Source of the DNA: Schmidtea polychroa
Lineage: Eukaryota
DNA: 64,000 nucleotides
Assembly: GCA_044892525.1 (NCBI GenBank)
Contig: CM097885.1
Coordinates: 4,156,001-4,220,000 of the forward strand
Direction of reading: 5' to 3'
The notes below the pieces were generated by a model. It had not been told where the DNA came from. It ran no database searches and saw only the letters and a program-made list of their open reading frames with translations. Shown in pieces: positions 3,882-46,400 of the stretch (position 1 is the first letter of the stretch; every line of letters starts with the position of its first letter). The translations under genes and the position numbers were made by a program.

Positions 3882-3946
3882 ATGTTTGCTTTCAAGAAAG
3901 ATAAGAAAGATGATGAAGGTAGTGGAAATATTTATCAATCTTTAGA
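3882..3946 (+). pseudogene. COPG: Coatomer subunit gamma, 5' part of first coding exon (interrupted by Polinton)
   Basis: ATG at 3882 reads MFAFKKDKKDDEGSGNIYQSL(D). Removing the element and one TTTAGA copy joins it in frame to KSTVLQEARVFNESPINPKKC at 21119, matching the gamma-COP N-terminus. With the insertion present, the frame stops at TAG 4038-4040. Confidence 0.9.
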
Positions 3947-4037
3947 AGTAGTAGGATTGGTCACCGCCAGACCAGGTCACCGCCAGGCCACATATACCCC
4001 CTCCCCCCCCCGGTCTGAAAAATTTTATTTTTTTTTT

Positions 4038-5432
4038 TAGAACGATGCCTAATATTTTTAGAACTATTACGTAATTTTTTTAAATTAATTGGTCCAGCGG
4101 TGACCTACTTTTTTTCATCCCAAAAATTAATGTTCCCGCCAACAGATTTTATTGGACGATACCCCATCTTAAAGCTCAGTCCAAGACCTTTCGAATGAGC
4201 TATAGGTATCTTATATATCTTTAATAGTTTTAATGTTATTAACAATTGATGACCACCATCTTTTCAACGTTAAATTATTATTATTATTCAAAATATTATT
4301 AATTGGTCCAGCGGTGACCTACTTTTTTTCATCCCAAAAATTAATGTTTCCATCATCTGAATTTATTGAACGATACCTCATCTTAAAGCTCGGTCCAAGA
4401 CCTTTCGAATGAGCTATTGAAGGTATCAACATCATTAATATTAACAAGGAGAATGATTCACCCAATGACTCATCCAACGATGCCTAATATTTTTAGAACG
4501 ATGCCTAATATTTTTAGAATGATTACGTCACATTTTTAGAACGATGCCTAATATATTTAGAACGATGCCTAATATTTTTAGAACTATTACGTAATTTTTT
4601 TAAATTAATTGGTCCAGCGGTGACCTACTTTTTTTCATCCCAAAAATTAATGTTCCCACCAACAGATTTTATTGACCGATACCTCATCTTAAAGCTCAGT
4701 CCAAGACCTTTCGAATGAGCTATAGGTATCATATATATCTTTAATAGTTTTAATGTTATTAACATTTAATGACCACCATCTTTTCAAAGTTAAATTATTA
4801 TTATTTGTCAAAATATTATTAATTGGCCCAGCGGGCTCCTACTTTTTTTCATCCCAAAGATAAATGTTCCCGCCAACATATTATATTGATCGATAGCTTA
4901 TTTTAAAGCTCTGTGCAAGAACTTTCTAATGAGATATAGATTTTTATCATACGATGACTCATCACATTTTTAGAACAAAGACAATGACTCATCATATTTT
5001 TAGAACGATGCCTAATATTTTTAGATTGATTACATCATATTTTTAGAACGATGCCTAATATTTTTAGAACGATGCCTAATATTTTTAGAATGATTACATC
5101 ATATTTTTAGAACGATGCCAAATATTTTTAGAACGATGCCTAATATTTTTAGAACTATTACGTAATCGATGTCTAATATTTTTAGAACGATGCCAAATAT
5201 TTTTAGAATGGTGCCTAATATTTTTAGAACGATTACGTCATACTTTTAGAACGATGTCTAATATTTTTAGAACGATGCCTAATATTTTTAGAACTATTAC
5301 GTAATCGATGTCTAATATTTTTAGAACGATGCCAAATATTTTTAGAATGGTGCCTAATATTTTTAGAACGATTACGTCATACTTTTAGAACGATGTCTAA
5401 TATTTTTAGAACGATGCCAAATATTTTTAGAA
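4038..5432. repeat. Subterminal tandem arrays (left): 21-bp AGAACGATGCCTAATATTTTT units and four ~200-bp units
   Basis: Units starting AATTGG(T/C)CCAGCGG near 4088, 4301, 4608 and 4821; many 21-bp copies at 4490-4590 and 5000-5430. Confidence 0.93.
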
Positions 5433-5514
5433 CTAATAATTTTTGTTTTAATTATCGAATACGTAATAATATAATTTTGTTTAAATCGTTGATTACATAT
5501 TATTATTTTCTAAG

Positions 5515-5568
<54 letters not shown>

Positions 5569-5737
5569 CATATATACTCTTAATCTATCCGACAAGATAT
5601 TCTGTCCCCCTATGGGTACTGCACACAAGGGTACTACTCACATTCAACAAGTCACAAGGGTACTGTTCACAAAATTACTGGTAAAAATATTCAAGACAAA
5701 ACTTTCTAAATTCTAAATATTATTCTTTAAATATACA

Positions 5738-6096
5738 CTAAAATTTATTAACACATTCACATTCATCATCTCCACAGTTCATAACATTTTCAACAACATG
5801 ATCTATACAATCCCTATATACACACGGTTCAGTATCCGTAAATTCCTCCATAGGTTCATCAATTTCTTGAATGCTTTCCTCATCATCTTGAGTGTTTTCT
5901 TCATCTGTTTCATCAAATTCCGAATCTTCACTCTCTGCTACCCAGTCTATATTTAATGCGTTTGTAACAGATAATATATCCGCCATTTTCACACCAGATA
6001 TTTCTGCTAATTTTTCCAATAAAAAGTTTATTATAAATTCTAAATATTAAATAATTCGATAATTAACTAATCATATTAACCTTTTTCTGTAGTCAT
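5738..6096 (-). CDS. Polinton acidic protein with Cys-rich C-terminus, spliced (left-arm copy)
   Basis: Mirror of 18953-19311. Confidence 0.75.
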
Positions 6097-6192
6097 TATT
6101 AGTATTTTAAAACTATAGTATATATTTGTTTATAGAAAATATAGAATATAAGCGAAAACAAATATGACTAAATACATTTATTAAATACAACA

Positions 6193-6612
6193 TTAAAATA
6201 ACTGTGAAAGTCTAGCAGACATAATTTTCCAAATTGGAGAATACACATCATTATTATCAACTTTATATCCTTGGATTGTAATTGTTATATACCAATTTTC
6301 GTTTTCTTTGAAACTGATTTCATCAAAGGAATCATAAAATTTTGCATATCGGTTGTTGAAAAATGCATTTTGATTGCATGATAGATTTGTATTCAACCTT
6401 TTGAAAACATCATCTATGGTTTTAATATCTAACATTGAAAGCGTGCCGGTTAAGAATTGAAATTGGGTAGGAATTAGCTTGATCGGTGACACCAATTTCA
6501 TATTGATTTCTTCTTTTAAAAAATACATTTTGTAGTTGTGGAACATTTGAACAGGTTGTACAAGTTCTGGAACTACTTTTGGTTTTTCAGTGCTTGAAAT
6601 TTTCTTGGTCAT
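6193..6612 (-). CDS. Polinton 139-aa protein, possible OB-fold ssDNA-binding protein (left-arm copy)
   Basis: Identical translation to 18437-18856. Confidence 0.7.
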   Translation of the reverse strand: MTKKISSTEKPKVVPELVQPVQMFHNYKMYFLKEEINMKLVSPIKLIPTQFQFLTGTLSMLDIKTIDDVFKRLNTNLSCNQNAFFNNRYAKFYDSFDEISFKENENWYITITIQGYKVDNNDVYSPIWKIMSARLSQLF

Positions 6613-6720
6613 TGTGAATTATGATTAAAATGAAATGGTACAGGGTTTTTATACCTATGACTATTGTTTATCATCCAATCAGATTGCAGTATGTTTTTGT
6701 TTTAATTGAATGATAAATAA

Positions 6721-7185
6721 TTAATTAAGTGATAATAAAAAATCTAAAAATTCTTTTCCTTCAATTATTGATTTAATTTCAGATATGATATTATCAACTA
6801 TACATTTGTAATCAATATTTTTTATTCCAAGAATTACTATCTTACCGCTAGCGAATATATTTACACACATAGGGTTATATTTTATATATCTCAAAGCTGG
6901 AAATAATTCTGGTTCATAAAAGCATGGTATTAATTTAGCTAATTTATTTAAATTACAAGAAAAACCTATATCGGAAGTTACGGTTATCGATTGTATTTCT
7001 AAATCATAAACATTATATTCACTAGCTTTGATTATTTCCTTACACCCCATAATTCTACATTTACCAGTTTTGAAATATATTATTGGATATTTATTACTTC
7101 TGTTGATAAGTTGTTGTGGTTTCCCTATTGGAAATACCATTTTTGATACATCAGTTTTTGCCCTGTAATTTATATTTGAAAGCAT
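6721..7185 (-). CDS. TBP-like protein (left-arm copy)
   Basis: Identical translation to 17864-18328; contains YEPELFPAL and IFASGKIVILG. Confidence 0.88.
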   Translation of the reverse strand: MLSNINYRAKTDVSKMVFPIGKPQQLINRSNKYPIIYFKTGKCRIMGCKEIIKASEYNVYDLEIQSITVTSDIGFSCNLNKLAKLIPCFYEPELFPALRYIKYNPMCVNIFASGKIVILGIKNIDYKCIVDNIISEIKSIIEGKEFLDFLLSLN

Positions 7186-7289
7186 TTTAATGAAATAATT
7201 TTAAAAACTTTGATATATATAGGTATTTAAAAACAGAGTTCATTTAAATTATCAATATAAACAATAATTATATAGTTTAAATTTAAAAA

Positions 7290-7928
7290 ATGGAATTACG
7301 AAATGATGCAGTATACCAAATCGTTGGTCCAAGTGGTAGCGGGAAAACTTTATTTGTTTGTAAATTACTAAAATCAAATTTGTTTAAAACAAAATTCAAC
7401 AATATTTATTGGCATAGGGGCGCCGACGAAGAACACGGATTGACGCAATCAAGTTTCTGTCAGTTGAAAAACATGAAAATAGTAAAGGGCTTTGATAAAA
7501 ACTGGTTAAGTCGTTTGAAGAAAGATGATGTCATCATTATCGATGATTTGTATCAAGAAGCCAATAAAGAAAAGGACTTTAATAATTTATTCACAAAACT
7601 CAGCAGACATGTTGGTGTAACAGTTATTTTCATAACACAAAATCTATTTCATCAAGGTGGTGCACATCGAACACGTAATTTAAATGTACAATATTTAGTT
7701 ATTTTCAAGAATCCTAGAGATGCAACTGTCATTGATTTTCTTGGACGACAAGCATACCCTAATAACCGTAATTTTCTTATCAGTGCATTTCAAGATGCCA
7801 CGAAAATACCGCATGGGTATATATTTCTCGATTTCACACAACAATGCCCTGATGATATACGCGTAAAAACAGATATTTTCAACCCAAAAGGTGCCATGGT
7901 ATATAAACAAAGTTCAAAACAAAGTTGA
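7290..7928 (+). CDS. A32/FtsK-like packaging ATPase (left-arm copy)
   Basis: Walker A GPSGSGKT, Walker B IIIDDL, SRH and ITQNLF motifs; one L/S difference from the right copy. Confidence 0.95.
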   Translation: MELRNDAVYQIVGPSGSGKTLFVCKLLKSNLFKTKFNNIYWHRGADEEHGLTQSSFCQLKNMKIVKGFDKNWLSRLKKDDVIIIDDLYQEANKEKDFNNLFTKLSRHVGVTVIFITQNLFHQGGAHRTRNLNVQYLVIFKNPRDATVIDFLGRQAYPNNRNFLISAFQDATKIPHGYIFLDFTQQCPDDIRVKTDIFNPKGAMVYKQSSKQS

Positions 7929-7941
7929 AAACATATAAATC

Positions 7942-8319
7942 ATGTTTTCAAAAACAAGGATATCGGGTAAAAAACAACCAAAAGTTCCACCAACAACTAG
8001 TTATACTCCATCTAAAGAACTTATTACAGAAAATTTTCCTGCAATGAATCTTATTTCGAAAAATCCTAAACCTAAAAGTAAAACCACTAAGAAAGTAAAA
8101 GTTGTTAAAAATCATCGGAGTTTCCCGTTTTTCAATACATTGTTAAAGGCACCAAGTATGAAAAGAAACAGTATTTTGCAATCATTTCCAAATTATGTTG
8201 TCGATGATTTACTCGATATTATACTTAAAGTAGTCAAAGGCAAGATTAAAATCAGTAAATCTAAAAAGCAATTATTGAGTAAACATAGGAAACCTTTGCT
8301 ATCATTAGTAAATAATTAG
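7942..8319 (+). pseudogene. Truncated copy of the 162-aa basic core-like protein
   Basis: First 125 aa of 16619-17107, ending at the arm boundary; lacks the QQGGF C-terminus. Confidence 0.9.
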
Positions 8320-10452
8320 AATCACGAAAGGCCCGCTCTTCAGCGAAAGACAAGGTTTGCATGGGCTTTTTCCCATTAATTTCGTAATATGGCAGGACAA
8401 TTGTCATAGCAATTTCCTCCACCTTACGCAAGAAAGATAAGATGCAATCATCCCCAACAAACTCATAATAAAATTTGGAGTTATTATAATTATTTATTAA
8501 TAATAAACCTGCTGTTATTGGCAAATGCTTTTGATAGTGTATTATATCCCCCGGTAAAATTGATTCAAAGTCAGCATATATCACGAATGGCGGGGTTATG
8601 GTTTTCGCATAATTTTGAAAAATTAAATTTTTCTCTTTAGGTAGGGTATATAAAGTAGTACCTATCTGGTTTTTAATGCATAAGGCAACGTGAATATCAA
8701 ATGCATTTTTATGTCTAAATCCGTTAAGACAATGGGGGCACCAGTTTACACAAATTTGAACACTACAAGAGCTACTACGGTGCGAGTTCATTAATTTTTG
8801 CAAATTGAAAACTGCGGTATAATGGAAATTATCTCCGTCTTCCAATAAAAGTAAGTATAAGGGTTCACCACCTATAACCTTAGATCGGTGAATTATATCT
8901 AATTGAGGATGATGTGGAATATAATTATCGTCAACTATATTTTCAAAAGGCTTAGCAGGGGTCGTTCTATAAGTTAAAACATTTATTGCTAAATTTAAAT
9001 CCTTATTTTTCATCTCGAATTTAGGAATATCACATAGTTTCATTGGACAGTCGGAAATGGGGTCAAAATTTAACTCGTCAAGATAATTTTGATAGGAACT
9101 AACACGGTTCCTATGACTATGTACGACATTACGTTTTAAAAGTGCTAAAATACTATATATAAAGCACATATCATCGGTGTTTTTAACATTTACTATTGCA
9201 TTTTTAGATTTTAAAGATGATGGGGTGGGGATGTAACTATGTCCAGCTAGCCTATTCATATGTGTAAATTTTGTTAATATAAAATCTATTTCTTTGATTT
9301 TAACAACCCGCCATCCACTACCCAAATATGTGAATTTTTCTATTTTATTATTTAATTTGTGAACCCCCTCACTTAGAAAACTATCTGAAAAAGCCTCTGC
9401 CCTATTCGAGAAGAAATTATCTTTAATTTCACCATCTTTTTCAAATTGAATCAATACAGAGAATTGTATTTTCACCGACCCCATTCTGTTTATTTCATGT
9501 TTTAACTTATTAACGATTTTATCGGTTATGGATATTTGAACGATGTTATCCTTTTCTACATTAAATCTTAGATTCTTTCGAACCCCCTTAAAATCAATTT
9601 CGATTTCAGGTTCATCGTCAATATCGACTGAACCGCCTACTTGAATATTATTAACCACAGTTATTTGTTCTAATTTATTAATTTTAGAGGGAGCATCAGA
9701 CCCAATACTAACAGCAGGTCTTTTTAAATTATTATTTACATTAATAACATTATTAATTAGAGGTTTTGTAATATTATTTACATGTTTTGTATTAGTTTTA
9801 ATTACAGGTTTTGTAATATTATTTACAGGTTTTGTATTATTTACATTAGTTTTAATTATAGGTTTTGCAGTATTTCGTAGTTTGTTAAATAAATCCTTTT
9901 TATTTAAAGAGAACTGATTTAAATGGGATTTATGTATACTGTAAAACTCTAAATATTTAATTCTATGGGAAGTCTCGCATATTGGACATATATAGTACTT
10001 GATGCCATAAAATTTACGACCATAATATTTTTTCATCACTTTGTGACATAAATTTGAGTGACCAGTTGAAGCCTGGCAGTAATGTGGATAAAATTTGCCT
10101 GTTAATTATATTTATCAATTAATATTAATCATGAAATTAATATATCATTTATAGTTCTTTTATCATTTAGTTCTTATAAGGATTTTACAATTATTGATAT
10201 ATGTTTCATTTAAATACAATATAAAAATGAAATAAATATTAATAATTGTAAAATATTAATAAAGTCTTGTAAACTATAATAGGGATTTTATTATTATTAT
10301 TATTATTGTTTCTGTAGTTACATGCTCACTGTAACCTACATGTTTATATAATAAGAGTCTTTAGTTGCATGCTAACTAAACATATTAAATTATTAAAATA
10401 ATATTATAAAGAGAGTATATGTATAGAATAAAAATATTAGTATTATTATTAT

Positions 10453-10990
10453 TGATGTAGCTGCATGCTCAAAGATTGTAATTATTGCATAATAAATAGT
10501 TTGATGCAGCTGCATGCAGACTACATTTAATAAAGGGTATTTATTACGTAATAAATAGTTGATGTAGCCGCATGCAGACTACATTTAAAGATTGTATTTA
10601 TTACGTAATAAATAGTTTGATGCAGCTGCATGCAGACTACATTTAAAGATTGTATTTATTACGTAATAAATAGTTTGATGCAGCTGCATGCAGACTACAT
10701 TTAATAAAGGGTATTTATTATGTAATAAATATTTGATGCAGCTGACTGCTGACTACATTTATTGGGGCAATCATAATAAAAGAGATATGTAGCTGCATGC
10801 TGACTGCAGACTACATTTATTGGGGCAATCATAATAAAAGAGATATGTAGCTGCATGCTCACTGCAGACTACATTTATTGGGGCAATCATAATAAAAGAG
10901 ATATGTAGCTGCATGCTCACTGCAGACTACATTTATTGGGGCAATCATAATAAAAGAGATATGTAGCTGCATGCTCACTGCAGACTACAA
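10453..10990. repeat. Two adjacent ~58-bp tandem arrays with palindromes
   Basis: About 5 units with ATGCAGCTGCAT and TATTTATTACGTAATAAATA, then 4 units of GACTACATTTATTGGGGCAATCATAATAAAAGAGATATGTAGCTGCATGCTCACTGCA. Confidence 0.93.
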
Positions 10991-11015
10991 GATATATTTT
11001 TATTACTATTTTTAA

Positions 11016-11052
<37 letters not shown>

Positions 11053-11125
11053 TTAACTAATGTAGTTGCTCATTGCAAACTACAAGGAATATTTTAAAAC
11101 TATTGTTTCTTAAATACTTTTTAAA

Positions 11126-11290
11126 CATTTTCTTCATCATAATATTTTCATCATTTTCTTCATCATAATATTTTCATCATTTTCTTCATCATAATATTTT
11201 CATCATTTTCTTCATCATAATATTTTCATCATTTTCTTCATCATCATAATATTTTCATCATTTTCTTCATCATCATAATATTTTCATCAT
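11126..11290. repeat. 26/29-bp tandem repeat, 6 copies
   Basis: CATTTTCTTCATCATAATATTTTCAT x4, then 2 copies with an extra CAT. Confidence 0.92.
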
Positions 11291-12067
11291 TTAGTCAACA
11301 TAACATTTTCAATTTCATTATAATATTTTCTTCATTTTCATAATAAGTTTTTATAAATAAGTTTTTAAAGAAAATGTTTAAAAAGTATTTAAGAAATTTA
11401 CAAGGTTTTTAAAAAAAAATAAATATATAAAAATAAATAAATACTAACATCGTGATTCCATGTCGGAATCTGATTCATTATCAGCAACCTCCTCAATAGA
11501 AGTGAGGGCATTATCCGCATTAACAAGCTCCTCGATTGTATTATCCACATAATTCAGCTCATCGATAGAAGTCAGTGCATTATTCATCTCCTCAATAGAA
11601 TCATTATTAATTGGAACATCGATTTCAGCGTCCATGTCAACATTAAACACTAAAATGATTTTTAAAAAATAATATACTAAAATAAAATAAATTTACTTTG
11701 TTCATTAAAAACATTGTTTTGCCTAACAAATAAGGCATCATTATCCGGGGCATCATTTTGCCCAATAAACACGACATCATCATCGTCGCTAATTATAATA
11801 GGTTCTAAATAAAATAATAATTTCATAAAAATTAAAATATTTAAATTTACCGAAAATCCTATCAACATTCAAAATTGAATCATCTTCAGTCACTTGGTAC
11901 CATAAATTCTCTAAAATAATAAATAAAAATAATAATAATAATAACTAAATAATTTACCATTTTCACCCATCAACATTGCATTCAAAATTTTGTGTAAATC
12001 AGCGTCCATTTTAATTTAAAATTTGTAAATTTAAGAATAATTATGACAAATTTTAGAATTGTCAATG

Positions 12068-12150
12068 TTTATATAGAACAGGAATATTTCCATGTCTCAA
12101 CCAATCAGAATTAAGACACATTCCTGAATACTTTTCCTCTATCAGCCAAT
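12068..12150 (-). promoter_or_regulatory. Putative Pol II promoter of spliced pPolB (TATA plus two CCAAT boxes)
   Basis: TATATAAA on the minus strand at 12075-12068, ~60 nt upstream of ATG 12009; CCAATCA at ~12101 and ~12146. Confidence 0.55.
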
Positions 12151-12239
12151 CAAATGGTAGCAAATGGGATTGCATATCTTTGTGCATGCACAATGTTTGT
12201 GTAGTTAGATAATAATATTTTTCAAAATAAATTTAATTA

Positions 12240-12331
12240 AAAATAATAATATTAATAATAATAATAATAATAATATTAATAATAATAATAATAATGATAT
12301 TAATAATAATAATAATATTAATAATAATAAT

Positions 12332-12389
<58 letters not shown>

Positions 12390-12450
12390 TAATAATAATA
12401 TTAATAATAATAATAATAATAATAAAATAATAATAATAATAATAAAATAA

Positions 12451-12481
<31 letters not shown>

Positions 12482-12490
12482 AACAACAAC
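12240..12490. repeat. (AAT)n microsatellite
   Basis: Imperfect AAT tract between the protease gene and the PolB promoter. Confidence 0.95.
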
Positions 12491-12511
12491 AAAGGATACA
12501 AAATACATTTA

Positions 12512-12924
12512 TTAATCATCAAATTTTTTATACAACAACCAAGCTAAACAATGTTGACCGCATGTTTGTGTCAAGGGATTTTGAAACATTGTTTTATTAT
12601 ATACAATAGGTTTCCCCATTGTTTGTAGTTTTGATACCAACAAAGCAGGGTAATAGAAACCCATAGGATCGAACACGAATATATTACTAGGTTTCACATA
12701 TATAGCAATCCAATGTTCTCCACCAAGATGAGACGATTGAGTATTGACGATTATGGCTTGATTATTGCTCAAATATGGGATTTTATCGAGAGGAAAAACT
12801 CCTACAAATTCATTTCCCAATATCTGTTTTTTCAATTCTATTGACCTGAACAGAACTACTTTAATAAATTAAACAGTATTGAAAAACTTACTCCATGACA
12901 ACTTTTTGGTGTTTCTGTATACAT
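12512..12924 (-). CDS. Adenain-like cysteine protease (N-terminus uncertain)
   Basis: FVGVFP, GEHWIA, FDPMG and QTCGQHC motifs in 12835-12512. ATG 12924 abuts the capsid stop and is followed by a GTAAGT donor at 12891, but the join needs a 1-nt frame correction. Confidence 0.9.
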
Positions 12925-14148
12925 TTATACTAGCACGGTTCTATTTGCAGTAATTTGAACTTCATTTTCAAATACTCCATATATTATAACATGTACTGGT
13001 TCAGTAATGGCCTTTGCAAACTTTATATCCAGTCGTAAATTCCCGTTTTGTGGTAATTGACTCTGATTTAAATCAAAATCAGGGGCTAAAACAAATGTGA
13101 AAAATGGATATTTGATTTTAAATTCTTCAAGAGTTATTCCGCAATTCAAATTTTTATCTAAATAACCCAGATTTCTAACAATACTCTGCATATATGTCGC
13201 ACAGTAATTATCATTCTCGAAATCTTGAGTATATGTTTCTCTATAATCAGTATTTTTCGATAAAGTCAATGAAGTAACACCAAAATTTTTGAAAATTGAG
13301 CTGGAAGCAGTATACGATCCATTATATTGCGTTTCACTTTGAAATGTTACCAGAATAAAATTAGGCATTCTTCTGTCACCAAATATTTGTTCTTTATAGA
13401 ATGATGAAGCACCTTTAGCAATAGCAAATTGTACAATTTCCTTTGTTTTTAAAGGATAAATTGCATGTTTTGAATTAAGCCCCAATTGATGACCAGCTAA
13501 TACTGACGGGTCTACTCGAACTCTTCTCACCAATAATTTTGCGTCAACTAATTGACATATTGGTGCACCAGTTGCACTAGTAAGAGACAATGCAGAATCA
13601 GATCTTTTCAGTCTAATATGTATATTAACTCCCGGTAGTAAATATTTCGGTTGATCCATAAAATCAAGTTGTAATGATGAGCACATAGTGAATACTTTTG
13701 AACCTTTAACCCACTTTTTTCTTTCATCATCTGCTGCTGCATAACCCATAGGTGTAAGACAGGTATTTTTAGTATCTGAATTGTAATTTAAAATAGTTTC
13801 TATCAAAGCCTTGTGAATGAATGTATTATTTCCACCCTCAATCTTGATATTATTAAATCCCAACACTGCATCTTTAAACAGAGTATGAAACATGAAATTG
13901 TTTGGTAATACATCCGCATTGGCATCCAAAACCTTTCTATCTTTATCTACAACCTTGATCTGAACAGTCAATAAAGTATCGTTCAAATCTAAATATTCAG
14001 TTTGCGAACCATTAATATAAAACTCGATATCATTTCTACTATCAGTAATTGAATTCATAGGAAAAACTTCCTCAAAGGCACCAAATTCTATTACTGCCTG
14101 GGGCGACGGTCTATCAAATATACATAATTCGGATTTACCACAAATCAT
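12925..14148 (-). CDS. Major capsid protein (double jelly-roll, PY/hexon-like)
   Basis: 407 aa; KSELCIF N-terminus, YLDLNDTLL, QPKYLLPGV and GNLRLDIKF motifs of Polinton major capsid proteins; position next to the protease. Confidence 0.92.
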   Translation of the reverse strand: MICGKSELCIFDRPSPQAVIEFGAFEEVFPMNSITDSRNDIEFYINGSQTEYLDLNDTLLTVQIKVVDKDRKVLDANADVLPNNFMFHTLFKDAVLGFNNIKIEGGNNTFIHKALIETILNYNSDTKNTCLTPMGYAAADDERKKWVKGSKVFTMCSSLQLDFMDQPKYLLPGVNIHIRLKRSDSALSLTSATGAPICQLVDAKLLVRRVRVDPSVLAGHQLGLNSKHAIYPLKTKEIVQFAIAKGASSFYKEQIFGDRRMPNFILVTFQSETQYNGSYTASSSIFKNFGVTSLTLSKNTDYRETYTQDFENDNYCATYMQSIVRNLGYLDKNLNCGITLEEFKIKYPFFTFVLAPDFDLNQSQLPQNGNLRLDIKFAKAITEPVHVIIYGVFENEVQITANRTVLV

Positions 14149-14506
14149 TTTGCAAATATAGTTCCATGTCCTTTCATTCGTTTGTTTATACGCGATATTC
14201 CATGCCCTTTACGTTTTGGAGCTGGGACTGGAGGTGTATTTTTTGAAACATACCAGCAACTCCAGGTAGAACCTTCCCTAACTCAGCTAAAGCATTTGTT
14301 TTTAGGGATGGTAATATTTTCTGTTCATTCATAATCACATCTTTTGCAGTTTTCATGCCAAAACTACCAATACGTTTAAGAATGGGAAGTGCAAATCTCC
14401 CTATTGTTTTTAACCAACCTGATCCATACTGTTTACCAATAAAATATGGTAATTCACCACCAGATTGGCTGTCACTATACATACTAATAATATCGGAATT
14501 AGCCAT
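14145..14506 (-). CDS. Small virion core/pVI-like protein, probable 1-nt frameshift near 14240
   Basis: QSGG..YFIG..QYGSG followed by an amphipathic basic helix. One extra A in the A6 run gives a basic tail (KRKGHGISRINKRMKGHGTIFAK*) whose TGA overlaps the capsid ATG. Confidence 0.75.
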
Positions 14507-15515
14507 CTACTTTACGAAAATGTAGTGTCAAATGAGTTTTTGAGTCTTTTGGGAAGTTTATAAGTTTTCCACTATCGTCACGAATATTTATTTCTATATT
14601 GTTTATACATGAGCTTGAAATTGGTAAATACATGGGATTATCTATATTTATATTGACAACTTCATCATGTTCATATTTTCCAATCCACACCGATTTCAAT
14701 AGAGGAACACTGGAATCACCAACTATTATAGGCTCAATAATATTAGTATATATGAACATTTGTTGATGATGTTCAAGTATTCTTGGTTTACGTATACCAG
14801 CCGATTTTTCCCGATATTGCTGCTTCTCTAATCCAAGTGTATTTGTCAAATTTTTATCAAATGTAACTTCGCAAATGTCATCATTCAAACTGAAGGTAAA
14901 TAACAAATCTTTCACAATATCCAAACTTTTAAATATGTGTGAACAATTATACTTTAAATATTTAAGTAACACATCAAGTTTATCAATATATAATTCGTCA
15001 GCGAAGGTGAATGATTCTTCAACTTCATTATTATACGACACTGAAATTTTGATTTCTTCTCTCATTACACTGTTTGCTTCAAATAGATCAAAGCGTAATA
15101 AATATTCTGTTTCCATAACTTCATTTTTCAACTTATTGCAACCCATTCGTCTGGCATCTTCAATATATTCGAATGTTATTGTAAATGGTTTAAAATTACA
15201 ACTGATATTTAATCCATCCTTGTAAAACATAGTGCAATGCTGATCTAATATTTGATTCGGAATATGATATGTTTTATCATAATTACTGATAATAAAGATA
15301 CCACTACATGTTTTCATAGCATTCCTTTTGAAATCAATCTTACATTGACTATAAAATGGGAATGTATTGTACACGAATGTAAAATCTTGCAGTGCAACTT
15401 CCCAGTCACCATTTAAAGAAATCGGATTCTGGAGATTGACCATGAATTTACTGGCTTGATTATCTGGATGAATAAGCGGGCAACTATTGCTTGGTAAAAT
15501 AGTATAAAAATTCAC
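14499..15515 (-). CDS. Minor capsid protein (single jelly-roll, PX/penton-like)
   Basis: FYTILPSNS, LNGDWEVAL, IVGDSSVPLL and LTLHFRK motifs. The expected start is GTG at 15515, overlapping the integrase TGA. Confidence 0.9.
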   Translation of the reverse strand: MNFYTILPSNSCPLIHPDNQASKFMVNLQNPISLNGDWEVALQDFTFVYNTFPFYSQCKIDFKRNAMKTCSGIFIISNYDKTYHIPNQILDQHCTMFYKDGLNISCNFKPFTITFEYIEDARRMGCNKLKNEVMETEYLLRFDLFEANSVMREEIKISVSYNNEVEESFTFADELYIDKLDVLLKYLKYNCSHIFKSLDIVKDLLFTFSLNDDICEVTFDKNLTNTLGLEKQQYREKSAGIRKPRILEHHQQMFIYTNIIEPIIVGDSSVPLLKSVWIGKYEHDEVVNINIDNPMYLPISSSCINNIEINIRDDSGKLINFPKDSKTHLTLHFRKVDG

Positions 15516-16557
15516 TTTACTAGATCCTTTTCTGATATCCATGATGGGATTTGATAACCATGCCATTTGACATAGTATTGTTTATCCTTGCCTTTATTTT
15601 TAGTTTTCAAAATCTTCTGAATTCTAAATACTTTTGGGGGAGGAATAACTTGTAATTTTCCTTGTACAATATTGTTATCATTGTCTTTGATGACATACAT
15701 TACAGGATTCTGTTTAGTATTTATTTTTGAAATTACAAAGACTTCATCACTCCAATTCGTATCAAAATTTTTAATAAATGGTGATGCACTAATTTTACTA
15801 AAATTTTACTAATTTTTACTAAAACTTTATATTTCGGTTTTGTAATTTTTTCAGGTTTTTTAGAATAGATTGTTTTTGACGTGATATCAATCGGCCTTAA
15901 TCCATTCAGTCCTTGATGTGATGAGTGATTATAACTGGTTATTATTTTTGGTAAAACCGATACCCATTTTTTATTACCTTGATGCACGAATAATTTCTTT
16001 AATCTATCTCTCAAAGTTCGGTTAAATCTTTCAACATGAGCAGCTTTGTATTGAGAATGTACTGAGTAATGGTTTATTTTCAATTTATTGAGGATTTGCT
16101 TGACTTTACTGTTGTAGAATTCTTTACCTAAAATAATAATAATAATAATAAAAATAATAATATTAATACCTAAATCAGTTTGCAAGTTTTTAGGATGTCC
16201 ATCTTTAAATAAATGATTAACAGCTTTGGACATTTCATCTGCAGATTTTGCCTTGACGGGTATTGCTCGGGCAAACCGACTGAATACATCAATACATGTT
16301 AAAATATATTTATACCCATTGTTAATTTTCGAATAGGGTATCATCTCCATCAAATCCATTTGCCATAAATCATTTATTCCATATGTTTTATATGCTCTTG
16401 TTGGGAATCGTTTCTGCATTGGTTTGTTCAAACTGTACGCATGCTGGTCTGATAACCACTTCTGAGTTTCCTTTTTCGAATTCGGAACTCTTTTCCTTAA
16501 TTTTGCCACTCCACCGAAACCGGCTTCGTCTTCTGGGTTCGTCCAAATCTTCTCCAT
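15512..16557 (-). pseudogene. Retroviral-like (rve) integrase with C-terminal chromodomain; 42-nt intron 16169-16128; frameshift near 15790-15825
   Basis: WQMDL, CIDVFSRF, QTDLG|KEF and VERFNRTL catalytic motifs. The C-terminus (NWSDEVF..YYVKWHGY..SWI) lies in another frame. Confidence 0.92.
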
Positions 16558-16615
16558 TACAACAAGAAGATTTAATATTAAATTTAATGTCTGGTAATGA
16601 AGGATTAGCACCCAT
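16388..16615 (-). CDS. Small overprinted ORF with N-myristoylation motif
   Basis: MGANPS (MGxxxS) then SSCC; ATG 4 nt after the upstream stop; overlaps the integrase in another frame. Confidence 0.5.
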   Translation of the reverse strand: MGANPSLPDIKFNIKSSCCNGEDLDEPRRRSRFRWSGKIKEKSSEFEKGNSEVVIRPACVQFEQTNAETIPNKSI

Positions 16616-16618
16616 TGT

Positions 16619-17107
16619 TTATGATCGACTTCCTATTATTCCACCTAATAATGATATTGCTAAAGGTATCAATGCACCGATAAATCCCCCTTGTTGTTTA
16701 TATATAATTTTTCTCATTTGTTGACGATTTTTATTATTTACTAATGATAGCAAAGGTTTCCTATGTTTACTCAATAATTGCTTTTTAGATTTACTGATTT
16801 TAATCTTGCCTTTGACTACTTTAAGTATAATATCGAGTAAATCATCGACAACATAATTTGGAAAAGATTGCAAAATACTGTTTCTTTTCATACTTGGTGC
16901 CTTTAACAATGTATTGAAAAACGGGAAACTCCGATGATTTTTAACAACTTTTACTTTCTTAGTGGTTTTACTTTTAGGTTTAGGATTTTTCGAAATAAGA
17001 TTCATTGCAGGAAAATTTTCTGTAATAAGTTCTTTAGATGGAGTATAACTAGTTGTTGGTGGAACTTTTGGTTGTTTTTTACCCGATATCCTTGTTTTTG
17101 AAAACAT
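16619..17107 (-). CDS. Basic core-like protein with adenain-type GG|F motif (adenovirus pX-like C-terminus)
   Basis: Lys-rich; ends QQGGFIGALIPLAISLLGGII. Confidence 0.8.
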   Translation of the reverse strand: MFSKTRISGKKQPKVPPTTSYTPSKELITENFPAMNLISKNPKPKSKTTKKVKVVKNHRSFPFFNTLLKAPSMKRNSILQSFPNYVVDDLLDIILKVVKGKIKISKSKKQLLSKHRKPLLSLVNNKNRQQMRKIIYKQQGGFIGALIPLAISLLGGIIGSRS

Positions 17108-17120
17108 GATTTATATGTTT

Positions 17121-17759
17121 TCAACTTTGTTTTGAACTTTGTTTATATACCATGGCACCTTTTGGGTTGAAAATATCTGTTTTTACGCGTATATCATCAG
17201 GGCATTGTTGTGTGAAATCGAGAAATATATACCCATGCGGTATTTTCGTGGCATCTTGAAATGCACTGATAAGAAAATTACGGTTATTAGGGTATGCTTG
17301 TCGTCCAAGAAAATCAATGACAGTTGCATCTCTAGGATTCTTGAAAATAACTAAATATTGTACATTTAAATTACGTGTTCGATGTGCACCACCTTGATGA
17401 AATAGATTTTGTGTTATGAAAATAACTGTTACACCAACATGTCTGCTGAGTTTTGTGAATAAATTATTAAAGTCCTTTTCTTTATTGGCTTCTTGATACA
17501 AATCATCGATAATGATGACATCATCTTTCTTCAAACGACTTGACCAGTTTTTATCAAAGCCCTTTACTATTTTCATGTTTTTCAACTGACAGAAACTTGA
17601 TTGCGTCAATCCGTGTTCTTCGTCGGCGCCCCTATGCCAATAAATATTGTTGAATTTTGTTTTAAACAAATTTGATTTTAGTAATTTACAAACAAATAAA
17701 GTTTTCCCGCTACCACTTGGACCAACGATTTGGTATACTGCATCATTTCGTAATTCCAT
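17121..17759 (-). CDS. A32/FtsK-like packaging ATPase
   Basis: GPSGSGKT, IIIDDL, SRH, ITQNLF and GYIFLD motifs. Confidence 0.95.
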   Translation of the reverse strand: MELRNDAVYQIVGPSGSGKTLFVCKLLKSNLFKTKFNNIYWHRGADEEHGLTQSSFCQLKNMKIVKGFDKNWSSRLKKDDVIIIDDLYQEANKEKDFNNLFTKLSRHVGVTVIFITQNLFHQGGAHRTRNLNVQYLVIFKNPRDATVIDFLGRQAYPNNRNFLISAFQDATKIPHGYIFLDFTQQCPDDIRVKTDIFNPKGAMVYKQSSKQS

Positions 17760-17863
17760 TTTTTAAATTTAAACTATATAATTATTGTTTATATTGATAA
17801 TTTAAATGAACTCTGTTTTTAAATACCTATATATATCAAAGTTTTTAAAATTATTTCATTAAA

Positions 17864-18328
17864 ATGCTTTCAAATATAAATTACAGGGCAAAAACTGATG
17901 TATCAAAAATGGTATTTCCAATAGGGAAACCACAACAACTTATCAACAGAAGTAATAAATATCCAATAATATATTTCAAAACTGGTAAATGTAGAATTAT
18001 GGGGTGTAAGGAAATAATCAAAGCTAGTGAATATAATGTTTATGATTTAGAAATACAATCGATAACCGTAACTTCCGATATAGGTTTTTCTTGTAATTTA
18101 AATAAATTAGCTAAATTAATACCATGCTTTTATGAACCAGAATTATTTCCAGCTTTGAGATATATAAAATATAACCCTATGTGTGTAAATATATTCGCTA
18201 GCGGTAAGATAGTAATTCTTGGAATAAAAAATATTGATTACAAATGTATAGTTGATAATATCATATCTGAAATTAAATCAATAATTGAAGGAAAAGAATT
18301 TTTAGATTTTTTATTATCACTTAATTAA
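17864..18328 (+). CDS. TATA-binding-protein-like protein
   Basis: Two TBP half-repeats: IIYFKTGKCRIMGCK aligns with ALIFSSGKMVCTGAK; IQSITVTSDIGFSCNL..YEPELFPAL..VNIFASGKIVILGIK aligns with IQNMVGSCDVKFPIRL..YEPELFPGL..LLIFVSGKVVLTGAK. Confidence 0.88.
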   Translation: MLSNINYRAKTDVSKMVFPIGKPQQLINRSNKYPIIYFKTGKCRIMGCKEIIKASEYNVYDLEIQSITVTSDIGFSCNLNKLAKLIPCFYEPELFPALRYIKYNPMCVNIFASGKIVILGIKNIDYKCIVDNIISEIKSIIEGKEFLDFLLSLN

Positions 18329-18369
18329 TTATTTATCATTCAATTAAAACAAAAACATACTGCAATCTG

Positions 18370-18403
18370 ATTGGATGATAAACAATAGTCATAGGTATAA
18401 AAA
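18370..18403 (+). promoter_or_regulatory. Inverted CCAAT plus TATAAAAA promoter of the 139-aa ORF
   Basis: ATTGG at 18370-18374, TATAAAAA at 18396-18403, ATG at 18437. Confidence 0.55.
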
Positions 18404-18436
18404 CCCTGTACCATTTCATTTTAATCATAATTCACA

Positions 18437-18856
18437 ATGACCAAGAAAATTTCAAGCACTGAAAAACCAAAAGTAGTTCCAGAACTTGTACAACCTGTTC
18501 AAATGTTCCACAACTACAAAATGTATTTTTTAAAAGAAGAAATCAATATGAAATTGGTGTCACCGATCAAGCTAATTCCTACCCAATTTCAATTCTTAAC
18601 CGGCACGCTTTCAATGTTAGATATTAAAACCATAGATGATGTTTTCAAAAGGTTGAATACAAATCTATCATGCAATCAAAATGCATTTTTCAACAACCGA
18701 TATGCAAAATTTTATGATTCCTTTGATGAAATCAGTTTCAAAGAAAACGAAAATTGGTATATAACAATTACAATCCAAGGATATAAAGTTGATAATAATG
18801 ATGTGTATTCTCCAATTTGGAAAATTATGTCTGCTAGACTTTCACAGTTATTTTAA
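18437..18856 (+). CDS. 139-aa protein, possible OB-fold SSB
   Basis: Clean ORF with an upstream TATA and AATAAA at ~18867; the function is inferred only from the C-terminal beta-strand pattern. Confidence 0.7.
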   Translation: MTKKISSTEKPKVVPELVQPVQMFHNYKMYFLKEEINMKLVSPIKLIPTQFQFLTGTLSMLDIKTIDDVFKRLNTNLSCNQNAFFNNRYAKFYDSFDEISFKENENWYITITIQGYKVDNNDVYSPIWKIMSARLSQLF

Positions 18857-18952
18857 TGTTGTATTTAATAAATGTATTTAGTCATATTTGTTTTCGCTTA
18901 TATTCTATATTTTCTATAAACAAATATATACTATAGTTTTAAAATACTAATA

Positions 18953-19311
18953 ATGACTACAGAAAAAGGTTAATATGATTAGTTAATTATCGAATTATTT
19001 AATATTTAGAATTTATAATAAACTTTTTATTGGAAAAATTAGCAGAAATATCTGGTGTGAAAATGGCGGATATATTATCTGTTACAAACGCATTAAATAT
19101 AGACTGGGTAGCAGAGAGTGAAGATTCGGAATTTGATGAAACAGATGAAGAAAACACTCAAGATGATGAGGAAAGCATTCAAGAAATTGATGAACCTATG
19201 GAGGAATTTACGGATACTGAACCGTGTGTATATAGGGATTGTATAGATCATGTTGTTGAAAATGTTATGAACTGTGGAGATGATGAATGTGAATGTGTTA
19301 ATAAATTTTAG
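18953..19311 (+). CDS. Acidic protein with Cys-rich C-terminus; exons 18953-18968 and 19010-19311
   Basis: ATG ACT ACA GAA AAA G|gt..41 nt..ag|AA joins in frame to FIINFLLEKLAEISG; TATAAA at ~18915. Confidence 0.75.
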
Positions 19312-19480
19312 TGTATATTTAAAGAATAATATTTAGAATTTAGAAAGTTTTGTCTTGAATATTTTTACCAGTAATTTTGTGAACAGTACCCTTGTGACTT
19401 GTTGAATGTGAGTAGTACCCTTGTGTGCAGTACCCATAGGGGGACAGAATATCTTGTCGGATAGATTAAGAGTATATATG

Positions 19481-19546
<66 letters not shown>

Positions 19547-21111
19547 CTTAGAAAATAATAATATGTAATCAACGATTTAAACAAAATTATATTATTACGT
19601 ATTCGATAATTAAAACAAAAATTATTAGTTCTAAAAATATTTGGCATCGTTCTAAAAATATTAGACATCGTTCTAAAAGTATGACGTAATCGTTCTAAAA
19701 ATATTAGGCACCATTCTAAAAATATTTGGCATCGTTCTAAAAATATTAGACATCGATTACGTAATAGTTCTAAAAATATTAGGCATCGTTCTAAAAATAT
19801 TAGACATCGTTCTAAAAGTATGACGTAATCGTTCTAAAAATATTAGGCACCATTCTAAAAATATTTGGCATCGTTCTAAAAATATTAGACATCGATTACG
19901 TAATAGTTCTAAAAATATTAGGCATCGTTCTAAAAATATTTGGCATCGTTCTAAAAATATGACGTAATCATTCTAAAAATATTAGGCATCGTTCTAAAAA
20001 TATTAGGCATCGTTCTAAAAATATGACGTAATCAATCTAAAAATATTAGGCATCGTTCTAAAAATATGATGAGTCATTGTCTTTGTTCTAAAAATGTGAT
20101 GAGTCATCGTATGATAAAAATCTATATCTCATTAGAAAGTTCTTGCACAGAGCTTTAAAATAAGCTATCGATCAATATAATATGTTGGCGGGAACATTTA
20201 TCTTTGGGATGAAAAAAAGTAGGAGCCCGCTGGGCCAATTAATAATATTTTGACAAATAATAATAATTTAACTTTGAAAAGATGGTGGTCATTAAATGTT
20301 AATAACATTAAAACTATTAAAGATATATATGATACCTATAGCTCATTCGAAAGGTCTTGGACTGAGCTTTAAGATGAGGTATCGGTCAATAAAATCTGTT
20401 GGTGGGAACATTAATTTTTGGGATGAAAAAAAGTAGGTCACCGCTGGACCAATTAATTTAAAAAAATTACGTAATAGTTCTAAAAATATTAGGCATCGTT
20501 CTAAAAATATTAGGCATCGTTCTAAAAATGTGACGTAATCATTCTAAAAATATTAGGCATCGTTCTAAAAATATTAGGCATCGTTGGATGAGTCATTGGG
20601 TGAATCATTCTCCTTGTTAATATTAATGATGTTGATACCTTCAATAGCTCATTCGAAAGGTCTTGGACCGAGCTTTAAGATGAGGTATCGTTCAATAAAT
20701 TCAGATGATGGAAACATTAATTTTTGGGATGAAAAAAAGTAGGTCACCGCTGGACCAATTAATAATATTTTGAATAATAATAATAATTTAACGTTGAAAA
20801 GATGGTGGTCATCAATTGTTAATAACATTAAAACTATTAAAGATATATAAGATACCTATAGCTCATTCGAAAGGTCTTGGACTGAGCTTTAAGATGGGGT
20901 ATCGTCCAATAAAATCTGTTGGCGGGAACATTAATTTTTGGGATGAAAAAAAGTAGGTCACCGCTGGACCAATTAATTTAAAAAAATTACGTAATAGTTC
21001 TAAAAATATTAGGCATCGTTCTAAAAAAAAAAAAAAATTTTTCAGACCGGGGGGGAGGGGGTATATGTGGCCTGGCGGTGACCTGGTCTGGCGGTGACCA
21101 ATCCTACTACT

Positions 21112-21598
21112 TTTAGATAAGTCAACAGTACTTCAAGAGGCTCGGGTTTTTAACGAATCTCCAATTAATCCTAAAAAATGCATTGGAATCTTAACTAGAA
21201 TTCTCTATATTATATCAAGAGGTGACAAATTAAGTCGAGCTGAAGCAACTGATGCTTTTTTTGCAATGACTAAACTTTTTCAAAACAAAGATCTAAATCT
21301 TCGTCGAATGGTGTATTTAGTCATTAAAGAAATGAAATCTATTGTCGATAATGTAATGATTGTTACAAGCAGCCTGCAACGAGATGTTATTGACAAGGAC
21401 CAGGCTTTTCGAGCCCCAGCATTACGTACATTGTGTAAAATCATGGACCCTGATATGGTTCAAATGCTTGAAAGACATATTAAAGAAGGTATTGTAAATC
21501 GTAGTTCTCCTTATGCATGTGCTGCTATTGCGTCAGCGTATCATCTAATGCAAACGGCTCATGAGTTAATTAGAAAATATTCAAATGAAGCTTGTGAT
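21112..21598 (+). pseudogene. COPG: Coatomer subunit gamma, remainder of first exon
   Basis: KSTVLQEARVFNESPINPKKC..EATDAFFAMTKLFQ..LRRMVYLVIKEM..IVTSSL; GTTAGT donor at 21599. No later COPG exons were recognised in the window. Confidence 0.92.
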
Positions 21599-22426
21599 GT
21601 TAGTTACAATAAAATTGTTCTGATGTGTCTTAAATTTAACCATATATATATACCTACAATTTTTATACAATTCACTTGTTTTTACAACACTATTTCTATA
21701 CTATTTTTAAACTAACTTTTAAAACTAAATTCAAATCATAAATTACAAGCACGCTTCTGCAAAATTTTTGAATTTCGTATGTGATTGTTTACTTTGCTTT
21801 TCATTTCTTTGTTAATAGCCGGTAGAATATACCAAACGCCACTGAGAACCATTTCCTATGTTGGGCGAGAAAGTAAAGTAATAATTTAAAAAGCATAAAA
21901 GGAAAGACAAATAAACAATAAGAATAAATAATAACAAATTAACCAAAGAGAATTAAAACAAAAAAATAAAAAATGAAAAATTAAGATAAGAAAACCGGAA
22001 AAAATAGTAAAATAATGGAAATAATAATAAATAAGAAAATAAAAAAAAATAAAGAAAACAATAAGGAAATACTAAGAAAACCACGAAAAACAAAGAAACC
22101 AAATTAAATTAAAAAATTACACCACGCTCAATTTTGATTGGCTCGCATAAAAACAAAATTAGGTATATAAGGGAGATACTGAAACAGCATTTTCAGTGTT
22201 AACCCGGATCATTATTAAGGAAAAACGAAGCATTCTAGGATCAGCATTTCAATCAATAGGACTAATTCGGAGCTAATTATTTTCAACAAATCACTCGAGG
22301 ACTCAAATTTTGAATTTTTGTGAATCGGTATTTAACAAGATAGAAAGTAAATTTTTATCTTTTGTAGAATTTTCAGTTACTATGAGAAGTGAGGAGTATA
22401 AATCCAAGCCAAATATACAGTATTAC

Positions 22427-43400: not shown

Positions 43401-46400
43401 TTCCATTTCCTTTGTAACTGTAAATGTTTGGAAACAGATGTCAACTTTTACTAAACGAAAACTCAAACGATAATGTCGAAAAGTTTTGTTAAACGGAAGC
43501 CAAATGAAGATAAATGAAAAAATTAGCGTTGTTACTGATACGCAATAAACTTTTTTGGATTCCTTTATCAAAAGATGAATTTTGTTTTTCAAATCGCGAT
43601 GATTGATGATGTCAACAACTTTTTAATTAATTATTTGAATCCTTTGATTAAGAGCCTCTCTTGAATTTGAATATTTGTCATTGCCGTTTACATTTTCTCT
43701 CATGGAAATATATTGATTTTTACCTTCTAAATTCAAGTAATTAACTTTCAAATTGGAAAGGAATTTAGAAAATGAGCTCAATAACCTGTTTAGCAGTATT
43801 AACGATTTTTAAAAGGCAGAGAGGTTATTTAAAGGTTTTCATCAAACTTTGAGACAGATAATGAAGATTTGGCTTGATAAAAGATACAAAGAATGAGAGA
43901 ACGGAATACAACGGGATAGAAAATGATTACAAGGGTAAATATTGCGAGCTCGTGCTTACTGTTATAAATTATGATTTATTGAGATGATCTAGGTAGGTGG
44001 GAACTGTGGAACTAACCGCCAGCTGTTTTAATTAATTTCACCCGGGGAAAAAATCTTTTAGAAAGAATTTAGGTAGAAAGAAATTTTTCGTCACATTGGA
44101 TCAAGTGTCACATTGATATGTTTGTCACGCTTAAACAATGCTCTCTCTTTTATAAATTCAATGGAAAAAAAAGTTCTAATAATAGAAAAAATATAAATTC
44201 AATTGAATATTGTATATTATTGATTATCTTTATAATGTTTATAATCGATTATATAATATAATTATAATTGCAATTGATTGATTATATATTATAATTATAA
44301 TTTCAAATAATCGATTATATAATATAATTATAATTTCAAATAATCGATTATATAATATAATTATAATTGCAAATAATCGATTATATAATATAATTATAAT
44401 TACAATTAATCGATATATAATGTAATTGCAAGTAATTCTGAATTTGTGGATAAATAATGTTTAAAGAAATTTGACAAAAAAAGAAATTCAATCTCCCAAT
44501 TTCGGTTGACGCCCTATCTGTTAGAACCGAGTCAAAATCAATTAACGCTACGAGGAAGCCAGTTGATCAAACCAAATTGTGAAAGAAAATTTATCGCAGT
44601 TTGATAATGAACAAATTGACTATTCTAACATAACTCGCTTGTTGATTGGATCCGAGATTAAACCAATCATTTACAATTGACCAATGAGCAACTGAGATAT
44701 ATGATTCCAATTCATTTACTCTTATCACTGCCAGATTGGATACAATTTGATTTATTTACCTATTAGAATTTATTTGATGGCCTGATTGGCAATCAAATCC
44801 ATTGCTAGGGGGCATGGAGGAACACGTAGTACTAGATATAGCAGAATTACTATGGAAGGCTCCTATTACTAAGGGTGTTATTGGCTATGATAATGGCATC
44901 ATATTTGCAATATTCCTTTATAATTCCAATAACAAATTCCTAGCATAGAAGCGTTGCTATGGGTGATGTCCCCCCTCGGGTGCCAAATGGACGCGTAAAT
45001 GGGAATGGGGAGGTGCGAGGAGTATTCATATCATTATATGGAGCTAACTCAATATAATCATTATAAATGACCATCCGATATGAATTCCTAGCATAGAAGC
45101 GTTGCTATGGGTGATATCCCCCCTCGGGTGCCAAATGGACGCGTAAATGGGAATGGGGAGGTGCGAGGAGTATTCATATCATTATATCAGGCTAACTCGA
45201 TATAATCATTATAAATGACCATCCGATATGAATTCCGAGCAAATGAGCGTTGCTATGGGTGATATCCCCCCTCGGGTGACAAATGGACGCGTAAATGGGA
45301 ATGGGGAGGTGCGAGGAGTATTCATATCATTATATCAGGCTAACTCGATATAATCATTATAAATTACCATCCGATATGAATTCCTAGCATAGAAGCGTTG
45401 CTATGGGTGATATCCTTCCTCGGGTGCCAAATGGACGCGTAAATGGGAATGGGGAGGTGCGAGGAGTATTCATATCATTATATGGAGCTAACTCAATATA
45501 ATCATTATAAATGACCATCCGATATGAATTCCTAGCATAGAAGCGTTGCTATGGGTGATATCCCCCCTCGGGTGCCAAATGGACGCGTAAATGGGAATGG
45601 GGAGGTGCGAGGAGTATTCATATCATTATATCAGGCTAACTCGATATAATCATTATAAATGACCATCCGATATGAATTCCTAGCATAGAAGCGTTGCTAT
45701 GGGTGATGTCCCCCCTCGGGTGCTAAATCACCCACAAATCATTCAAAAATTAGCACGAAGGAGGCCGCTGGAAATCCCAGTTAATTTATCGGGTTAAATT
45801 AATCAAATCAATTCTCAATCTGACTCACTTGTTGAGTACATCGCAACAGTGGCATAATTTCATACAACAGCAGCAATTGAGAAATTTAAATCCACTTGCC
45901 AAAGGAGAATGCAAAATGGCGACTCCGAATCGAAATTTGGTTGCTAGGAAAATAGTCGGAACGCTGCCAATGCTCTGGCCGTATAGGATGATATTTTTGT
46001 GTGGAATGTCCAAGTTCTGATGCATAAATTCAAGCACTGAAACAATGTTAGAATACAAATTCCGTTCTGATGGATGGCCAGAAGATGTACCGTATCCAGA
46101 ATAATCATATGCGATAATGTTAACTTTCAATTTCAATCCTAATTCAATCAATTTCTTTGCTATCAATCCAATGTCAACCGCATTTCCGTGGCTGTAGAGA
46201 ATTGTATTTTTAGTCCATGGAGCTGTTTTCAAATAGATACAAGACAGATTATTACGTTTTTTAGTTTTGATTATGTAATAATTCAGGAAATGTTCATGAT
46301 CTTTTCCAATATCAAAATCATTATAATTGACAAGAAATTTTAAGTGATATTGAGAATCGTGCATAATTGAATATGTGCATGGTGGAGGACTAAATGCTGC

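Follow-up and report, generated by a model that had tools for sequence, protein, structure and literature searches.

A Polinton of Schmidtea polychroa with gene-bearing inverted arms in place of its polymerase end, and the recurrence of arm duplication in its family

Polintons (Mavericks), as far as the cited accounts describe them, have AGTAGT...ACTACT termini, a 6-bp target-site duplication (TSD) and a length of ~17 kb (10.1101/2023.08.22.554363, PMC8097293), and their terminal repeats are given as 100-1500 bp in the first of these sources and 46-1447 bp in the second. The element considered here occupies positions 3947-21111 (17,165 bp) of a 64,000-nucleotide stretch of the Schmidtea polychroa genome, referred to as the window, which lies on contig CM097885.1 (C1 below; positions 4,156,001 to 4,220,000) of the 781-Mb assembly GCA_044892525.1. 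By its termini, TSD and genes it is a Polinton: it has the 6-bp TSD, the (AGT)2...(ACT)2 ends with inverted repeats, an integrase, an A32-type ATPase, an adenovirus-type protease and a putative capsid protein, and the protein-primed family B polymerase (PolB) is present in the family, as seen at a sister locus. Unlike the Polintons of those accounts, it has 4.37-kb repeats that carry genes, and its polymerase domain is gone.

Structures in which one end has been copied over the other are described in more distant systems. In copy-back and snap-back defective viral genomes, which are helper-dependent, one end is reverse-copied onto the other (PMC13506859; for adeno-associated virus, PMC8235507, PMC9463555). 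The element in the window has the corresponding trait, in that a reverse duplicate of one terminus extends past the native repeat to an internal junction, and it resembles such a panhandle with a long loop, while its sister copies resemble the near-complete palindromes. The genomes in those sources are RNA-virus or parvovirus particles, whereas here the product is double-stranded DNA fixed in a host genome and known from sequence alone. Vaccinia MVA-CR19 (PMC7198643) and Streptomyces chromosomes (PMC5869714) are also reported to lose the left end, duplicate right-end genes and enlarge the repeat, but those products remain viable. In the window, by contrast, the rearrangement interrupts an essential gene and its product is integrated, and it lacks the long internal homology that the described Streptomyces cases use. 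The nearest precedent among relatives is given by the truncated endogenous mavirus-like elements with regenerated repeats (Hackl et al., PMC8547959), although their repeats are 0.2-2.3 kb and the available part of that account does not describe gene-bearing arms, palindromes or the mechanism. The literature searched, with the founding paper, Repbase and supplements outside the search, yielded no gene-bearing arms, palindromes or copy-back in Polintons.

Self-comparison of the window gave one long inverted repeat, the arms of which were then aligned globally, base by base. The segment 3947-8316 differs from the reverse complement of 16733-21111 by five substitutions (4555, 5034, 5098, 7507 and 8184) and three indels (near 4004, 4027 and 5516), the latter all within homopolymer or microsatellite runs and attributable to slippage. 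Identity stops at 8316/16733, and the spacer between the arms is 8.4 kb long. A first-pass annotation, made from the sequence alone, had proposed near-perfect inverted arms that duplicate four whole genes and part of a fifth, and this description stands: the open reading frames (ORFs) of 82 and 139 aa, the TBP-like ORF and the ATPase are duplicated whole, and the fifth ORF over 125 of its 162 codons. The name 'core-like' for that fifth ORF is the annotation's own; no significant Pfam family was found for it. The two arm differences singled out in the annotation, WLS versus WSS in the ATPase and a synonymous change at 8184, are real. At 8184 the left-arm allele is that of both arms of a sister locus, L054, and at 4555, 5034 and 5098 the right-arm allele is the one found at other loci. 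Three substitutions lie in the part equivalent to the native repeat and two in the extension, a distribution (p = 0.39) that has no dating power. Between-arm divergence is 0.11%, compared with a median of 32 per 1500 bp among polB copies (231 equal-length pairs), and the rearrangement is young within the family.

Comparison with other family members indicates which arm is native. The similarity of native left ends to the right arm stops at ~19372-19378, just outside the last ORF, so the terminal repeat native to this family is non-coding and ~1.1-1.8 kb long, its length varying with its tandem arrays. The annotation had set the arms against Polinton repeats that are normally much shorter and non-coding; they do far exceed both this native repeat, past which they reach by ~2.6 kb, and the published ranges. 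When positions 7900-10100 were used as a query against the assembly and 40 of 3978 candidates were scored, all 29 of the other loci fetched showed similarity that begins at 8319 and a polB that runs on into sequence absent from the window. The right end, with four complete genes and a portion of another, has taken the place of the left end.

The replacement cuts polB. As the annotation had stated, PolB is interrupted at the junction before its polymerase domain, but its endpoint at 'DSN' was not confirmed: the N is already derived from the junction, and the frame runs a further 18 residues into the arm, where it stops at 8261. The further claim, that the cut precedes any polymerase motif, holds for PF03175 (E 1.1e-28), which begins 38 residues past the junction in the continuation at a sister locus; the remnant does keep 'YADFES', which we take to be an ExoI-like motif. 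The remnant itself had no Pfam match, and a search of PDB sequences gave 0 matches. The complete polymerase domain falls wholly within the replaced segment and is therefore absent from this copy, which is non-autonomous.

The insertion is real. TTTAGA is present on both flanks, so that the TSD is intact, as had been reported, and four of the five host paralogs fetched have an empty site with one TTTAGA (the probe found no match in the other). When the element and one TSD copy are removed, the flanks rejoin as a single reading frame, which we take to be gamma-COP-like. This fragment, the 5' part of the gene, has 26 long genome matches with 86-97% identity and is probably cargo of another transposon; because it is multi-copy, insertion into the real gamma-COP gene was rejected. 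The real gene may be the split match at C2:78.76 Mb, which is more divergent. The copy in the window is a dead element within a repeated host gene fragment, with no evident function.

The duplication had been regarded as an isolated event, but it belongs to a process that recurs across the family. The terminal motif has 258 genome matches, and eight sister loci were compared, three of them picked as already showing inverted polB and five for paired termini only, with 26 listed loci outside the sample. Long inverted arms are present in all eight; seven have their own 6-bp TSD in unrelated flanks, and one is without its left terminus. The two ends of an element share private variants. Each of the four polB-side palindromes has a centre of its own, at window-equivalent positions 9850-10950, and a loop of less than 1 kb; they show 0-2 substitutions per 1500 bp between arms and 25-32 between elements. 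A common ancestor for them was rejected on the grounds of the different centres and the between-element divergence. Short templated inverted inserts occur at the L006 and L054 junctions, and L053 and L044 fold back at self-complementary repeats.

Motif pairs extend the recurrence beyond these loci. The polB C-terminal motif has 299 genome matches, of which 100 were listed, 97 of them on C1; among these 97 there are five convergent inverted pairs less than 20 kb apart and no divergent ones, against 0.17 expected. All five imply elements of 8-12 kb, and three were also seen with a second motif. One further polB pair occurs among the three matches listed on C2. No reciprocal full-length left-arm duplication was found among the 97 C1 matches listed. 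The ATPase motif has 701 genome matches, and the 100 listed include two convergent pairs less than 12 kb apart (~0.4 expected), which are this element and L054. In L054 the arms agree at 99.7% over the 1166 bp covered, and an inverted insert of 44 bp links the integrase to the 355-aa ORF. A third ATPase-side candidate, at C3:97.04 Mb, is known from coordinates only. In total, gene-bearing cases with different junctions comprise six that are sequence-verified (this copy, the four polB-side palindromes and L054), and another six are inferred from coordinates.

The remaining four of the eight sister loci belong to a gene-less palindromic family of 12-14 kb (L038-L043, L046-L047) with the same termini and, in the three measured, central spacers of ~700 bp. 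In the pair tested, 3 kb of the arms are 99.9% alike, whereas copies are 88-97% alike, so that these elements can be mobilised as palindromes; they have multiplied with TSDs of their own. L046/L047 has a nested relative inside it with its own ATTATT TSD.

Two observations on motif counts concern the composition of the family. Exact matches number 701 for the ATPase motif and 251 and 299 for two polB motifs, so that many of the copies may be without polB or come from a different subfamily. At C1:259867558-259873687 and C2:178802926-178810881, a motif located upstream of polB forms inverted pairs of the opposite arrangement; these may represent right-side palindromes of excess length or neighbouring elements.

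It is probable that the copy in the window arose as a defective genome while the element replicated outside the chromosome, either through copy-back or because sister fragments were end-joined, and was then integrated with a helper. The polymerase end would have been replaced by an inverted copy of the other end while the element was free linear DNA. By the most likely route, a strand begun at the right terminus would halt inside polB, re-prime on its own 5' part and copy back to the terminus, making a correct end in one step. A single switch would thereby give two correct ends and identical arms, and an integrase could insert the product with a normal TSD; short loops would produce palindromes, and a long loop this copy. 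Sister copies would have supplied replication, and an integrase integration. Adenovirus offers a parallel for protein-primed strand-displacement replication. The same product would result if right-end fragments of two sister molecules were end-joined, and the homology-free junction fits this route as well. The copy-back idea already present in the first-pass annotation is strengthened by the many independent sister events; of the two orders that it named, formation before integration is only the more probable.

The size of the replaced segment may also bear on the route. From a shared repeat anchor to the junction, the copied segment measures 2723 bp and the native one 2583-2801 bp (six arms, four sisters); copied and lost segments are equal in length, so that the element retains a unit length of 17,165 bp, and the other duplications are ~8-12 kb in size. 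Such a match would be expected if the strand jumped between two forks begun together at paired ends, but in this one case chance, size selection or a jump between level forks could each account for it.

Several points weigh against formation in a free phase. In the other five sequenced cases the loops are all shorter than 1.4 kb, in contrast to the 8.4-kb spacer here. Free Polinton DNA itself was not observed, and the free phase is one that we infer; the substitutions do not date the event. Microhomology at the junction, a possibility raised in the annotation, is not significant, the best candidate being a 4-base in-register match three bases off, which is expected by chance in 6% of cases. 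The same annotation had proposed a search for this junction at other loci; the junction 30-mer is unique in the assembly, allowing up to two mismatches. The L006 and L054 junction 30-mers are also each unique, while the one from L053, poorly centred, gives one exact match, with 98 two-mismatch matches to native sequence. Since three of these junctions are single-locus and the fourth has one exact match, no gene-bearing form has been seen multiplied; amplification is seen for the gene-less palindromes only. Reads were assembled over 5700-9700 from 4 of 18 public runs and yielded short contigs from a family of very high copy number, none of which, among the pieces listed, crosses 8316-8319. Loose read ends at 8319, among those listed, are the native polB continuation in three runs. 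Single-copy residual read depths at arm-specific alleles were inconsistent across sites, and no inference was drawn from them. Run X16, labelled as a second organism, has 0.62 of the junction words, as much as runs of the first organism.

It may instead be that the element was repaired after integration, although this seems rather unlikely. In that case a break in the left part would have invaded the right terminal repeat, been copied 2.6 kb beyond it and been end-joined to polB. Abortive gap repair is known for cut-and-paste transposons. Such repair would retain the TSD by construction and would explain equally well that every junction tested is single-locus; the junction, with two unassigned bases and no significant microhomology, resembles end-joining, and a copied segment as long as the lost one is what gap filling might give. 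Yet two steps would be needed per event, and scattered spacers would be predicted, whereas polB-side loops are below 1 kb and the C1 pairs imply 8-12 kb. The gene-less palindromes, moreover, move as palindromes, and the outer repeat has no excess divergence, a weak point. Formation during extrachromosomal replication is for these reasons preferred here. That the structure is an artefact of assembly from chimeric or fold-back long reads is highly improbable: the family has hundreds of copies and read-level support was not obtained (the best public run has 0.78 of the sampled junction words), but the differing flanks rejoin in one frame with one TSD copy, like the empty sites, both arms carry private changes (from which a simple assembly mirror had already been judged unlikely), an 8.4-kb spacer is not that of a fold-back read, and seven sister palindromes carry their own TSDs.

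Table 1. Features of the element and its insertion site (window coordinates)
Feature	Position	Strand	Basis or remark
Gamma-COP-like multi-copy host fragment, start, split by insertion	3882..3946	+	Flank comparison
Left TSD copy, TTTAGA	3941..3946	+	Single copy at empty site in 4/5 paralogous host loci
Left arm, inverted copy of right end in place of native left end	3947..8316	+	29/29 other polB loci differ here
Left-arm part equivalent to native non-coding terminal repeat (inner border approximate)	3947..5677		
Duplicated acidic ORF, 82 aa	5738..5986	-	Right-arm copy without Pfam match
Duplicated 139-aa ORF	6193..6612	-	Without Pfam match; without usable Atlas match
Duplicated TBP-like ORF	6721..7185	-	PF00352, E 2.8e-15 for identical right-arm copy (17864-18328)
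Duplicated packaging ATPase	7290..7928	+	PF04665, E 2.4e-07 for right-arm copy
Truncated 'core-like' ORF duplicate, 125/162 codons	7942..8319	+	Stop created by junction
polB remnant, 573 N-terminal codons	8261..10036	-	Polymerase domain gone
Junction, two bases between arm identity and polB identity	8317..8318		Fit neither side fully
AT-rich self-complementary repeats upstream of polB	10174..10990		3/4 sequenced polB-side palindromes turn in or beside it
Adenovirus-type protease, open frame, start probably spliced	12515..12868	-	PF00770, E 1.3e-06
Putative double jelly-roll major capsid protein	12925..14148	-	Atlas 0.97, recognition below threshold; no significant Pfam match
106-aa and 355-aa ORFs	14186..15566	-	Without Pfam match
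Retroviral-type integrase	15733..16557	-	PF00665, E 2.5e-08
Right arm, native right end	16733..21111	-	Part of core-like ORF, ATPase, TBP-like, 139-aa and 82-aa ORFs, terminal repeat
Right TSD copy	21112..21117	+	Flank alignment
Gamma-COP-like fragment, continuation	21112..21646	+	PF01602, E 2e-22

The genes between the arms are listed in Table 1. For the capsid candidate, the Atlas cluster has PF21738 on 65% of its members, with a recognition score below the threshold of the tool. The 355-aa ORF is possibly a minor capsid protein, a label suggested by its position. Within the integrase ORF, 16129-16172 is a low-complexity in-frame stretch with GT...AG ends and is probably a short intron. Elsewhere in the window are a 370-aa ORF for a Tc1/mariner-type DDE transposase (PF13358; 23196-24308) and a tandem array at 44935-45728 with a 148-bp period and 95-97% identity.

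The point of importance is the recurrence across the family rather than the single copy. For annotation, the mining rules in the cited accounts demand polB and integrase between terminal repeats (10.1101/2023.08.22.554363, PMC8097293), and screens that need both overlook arm-duplicated forms. For the biology of Polintons, replication is, in the source cited, a model drawn from gene content (10.64898/2026.07.28.741278). Integrated arm-duplicated copies could, as a tentative proposal, be a fossil record of free linear replication, in which both ends yield copy-back and snap-back genomes that make up a few percent of insertions; integrated in trans, these may be the source of large palindromic non-autonomous satellites. 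As terminus-precise copy-back and snap-back products are a prediction of strand-displacement replication, a genome-wide census would make the model testable from sequence.

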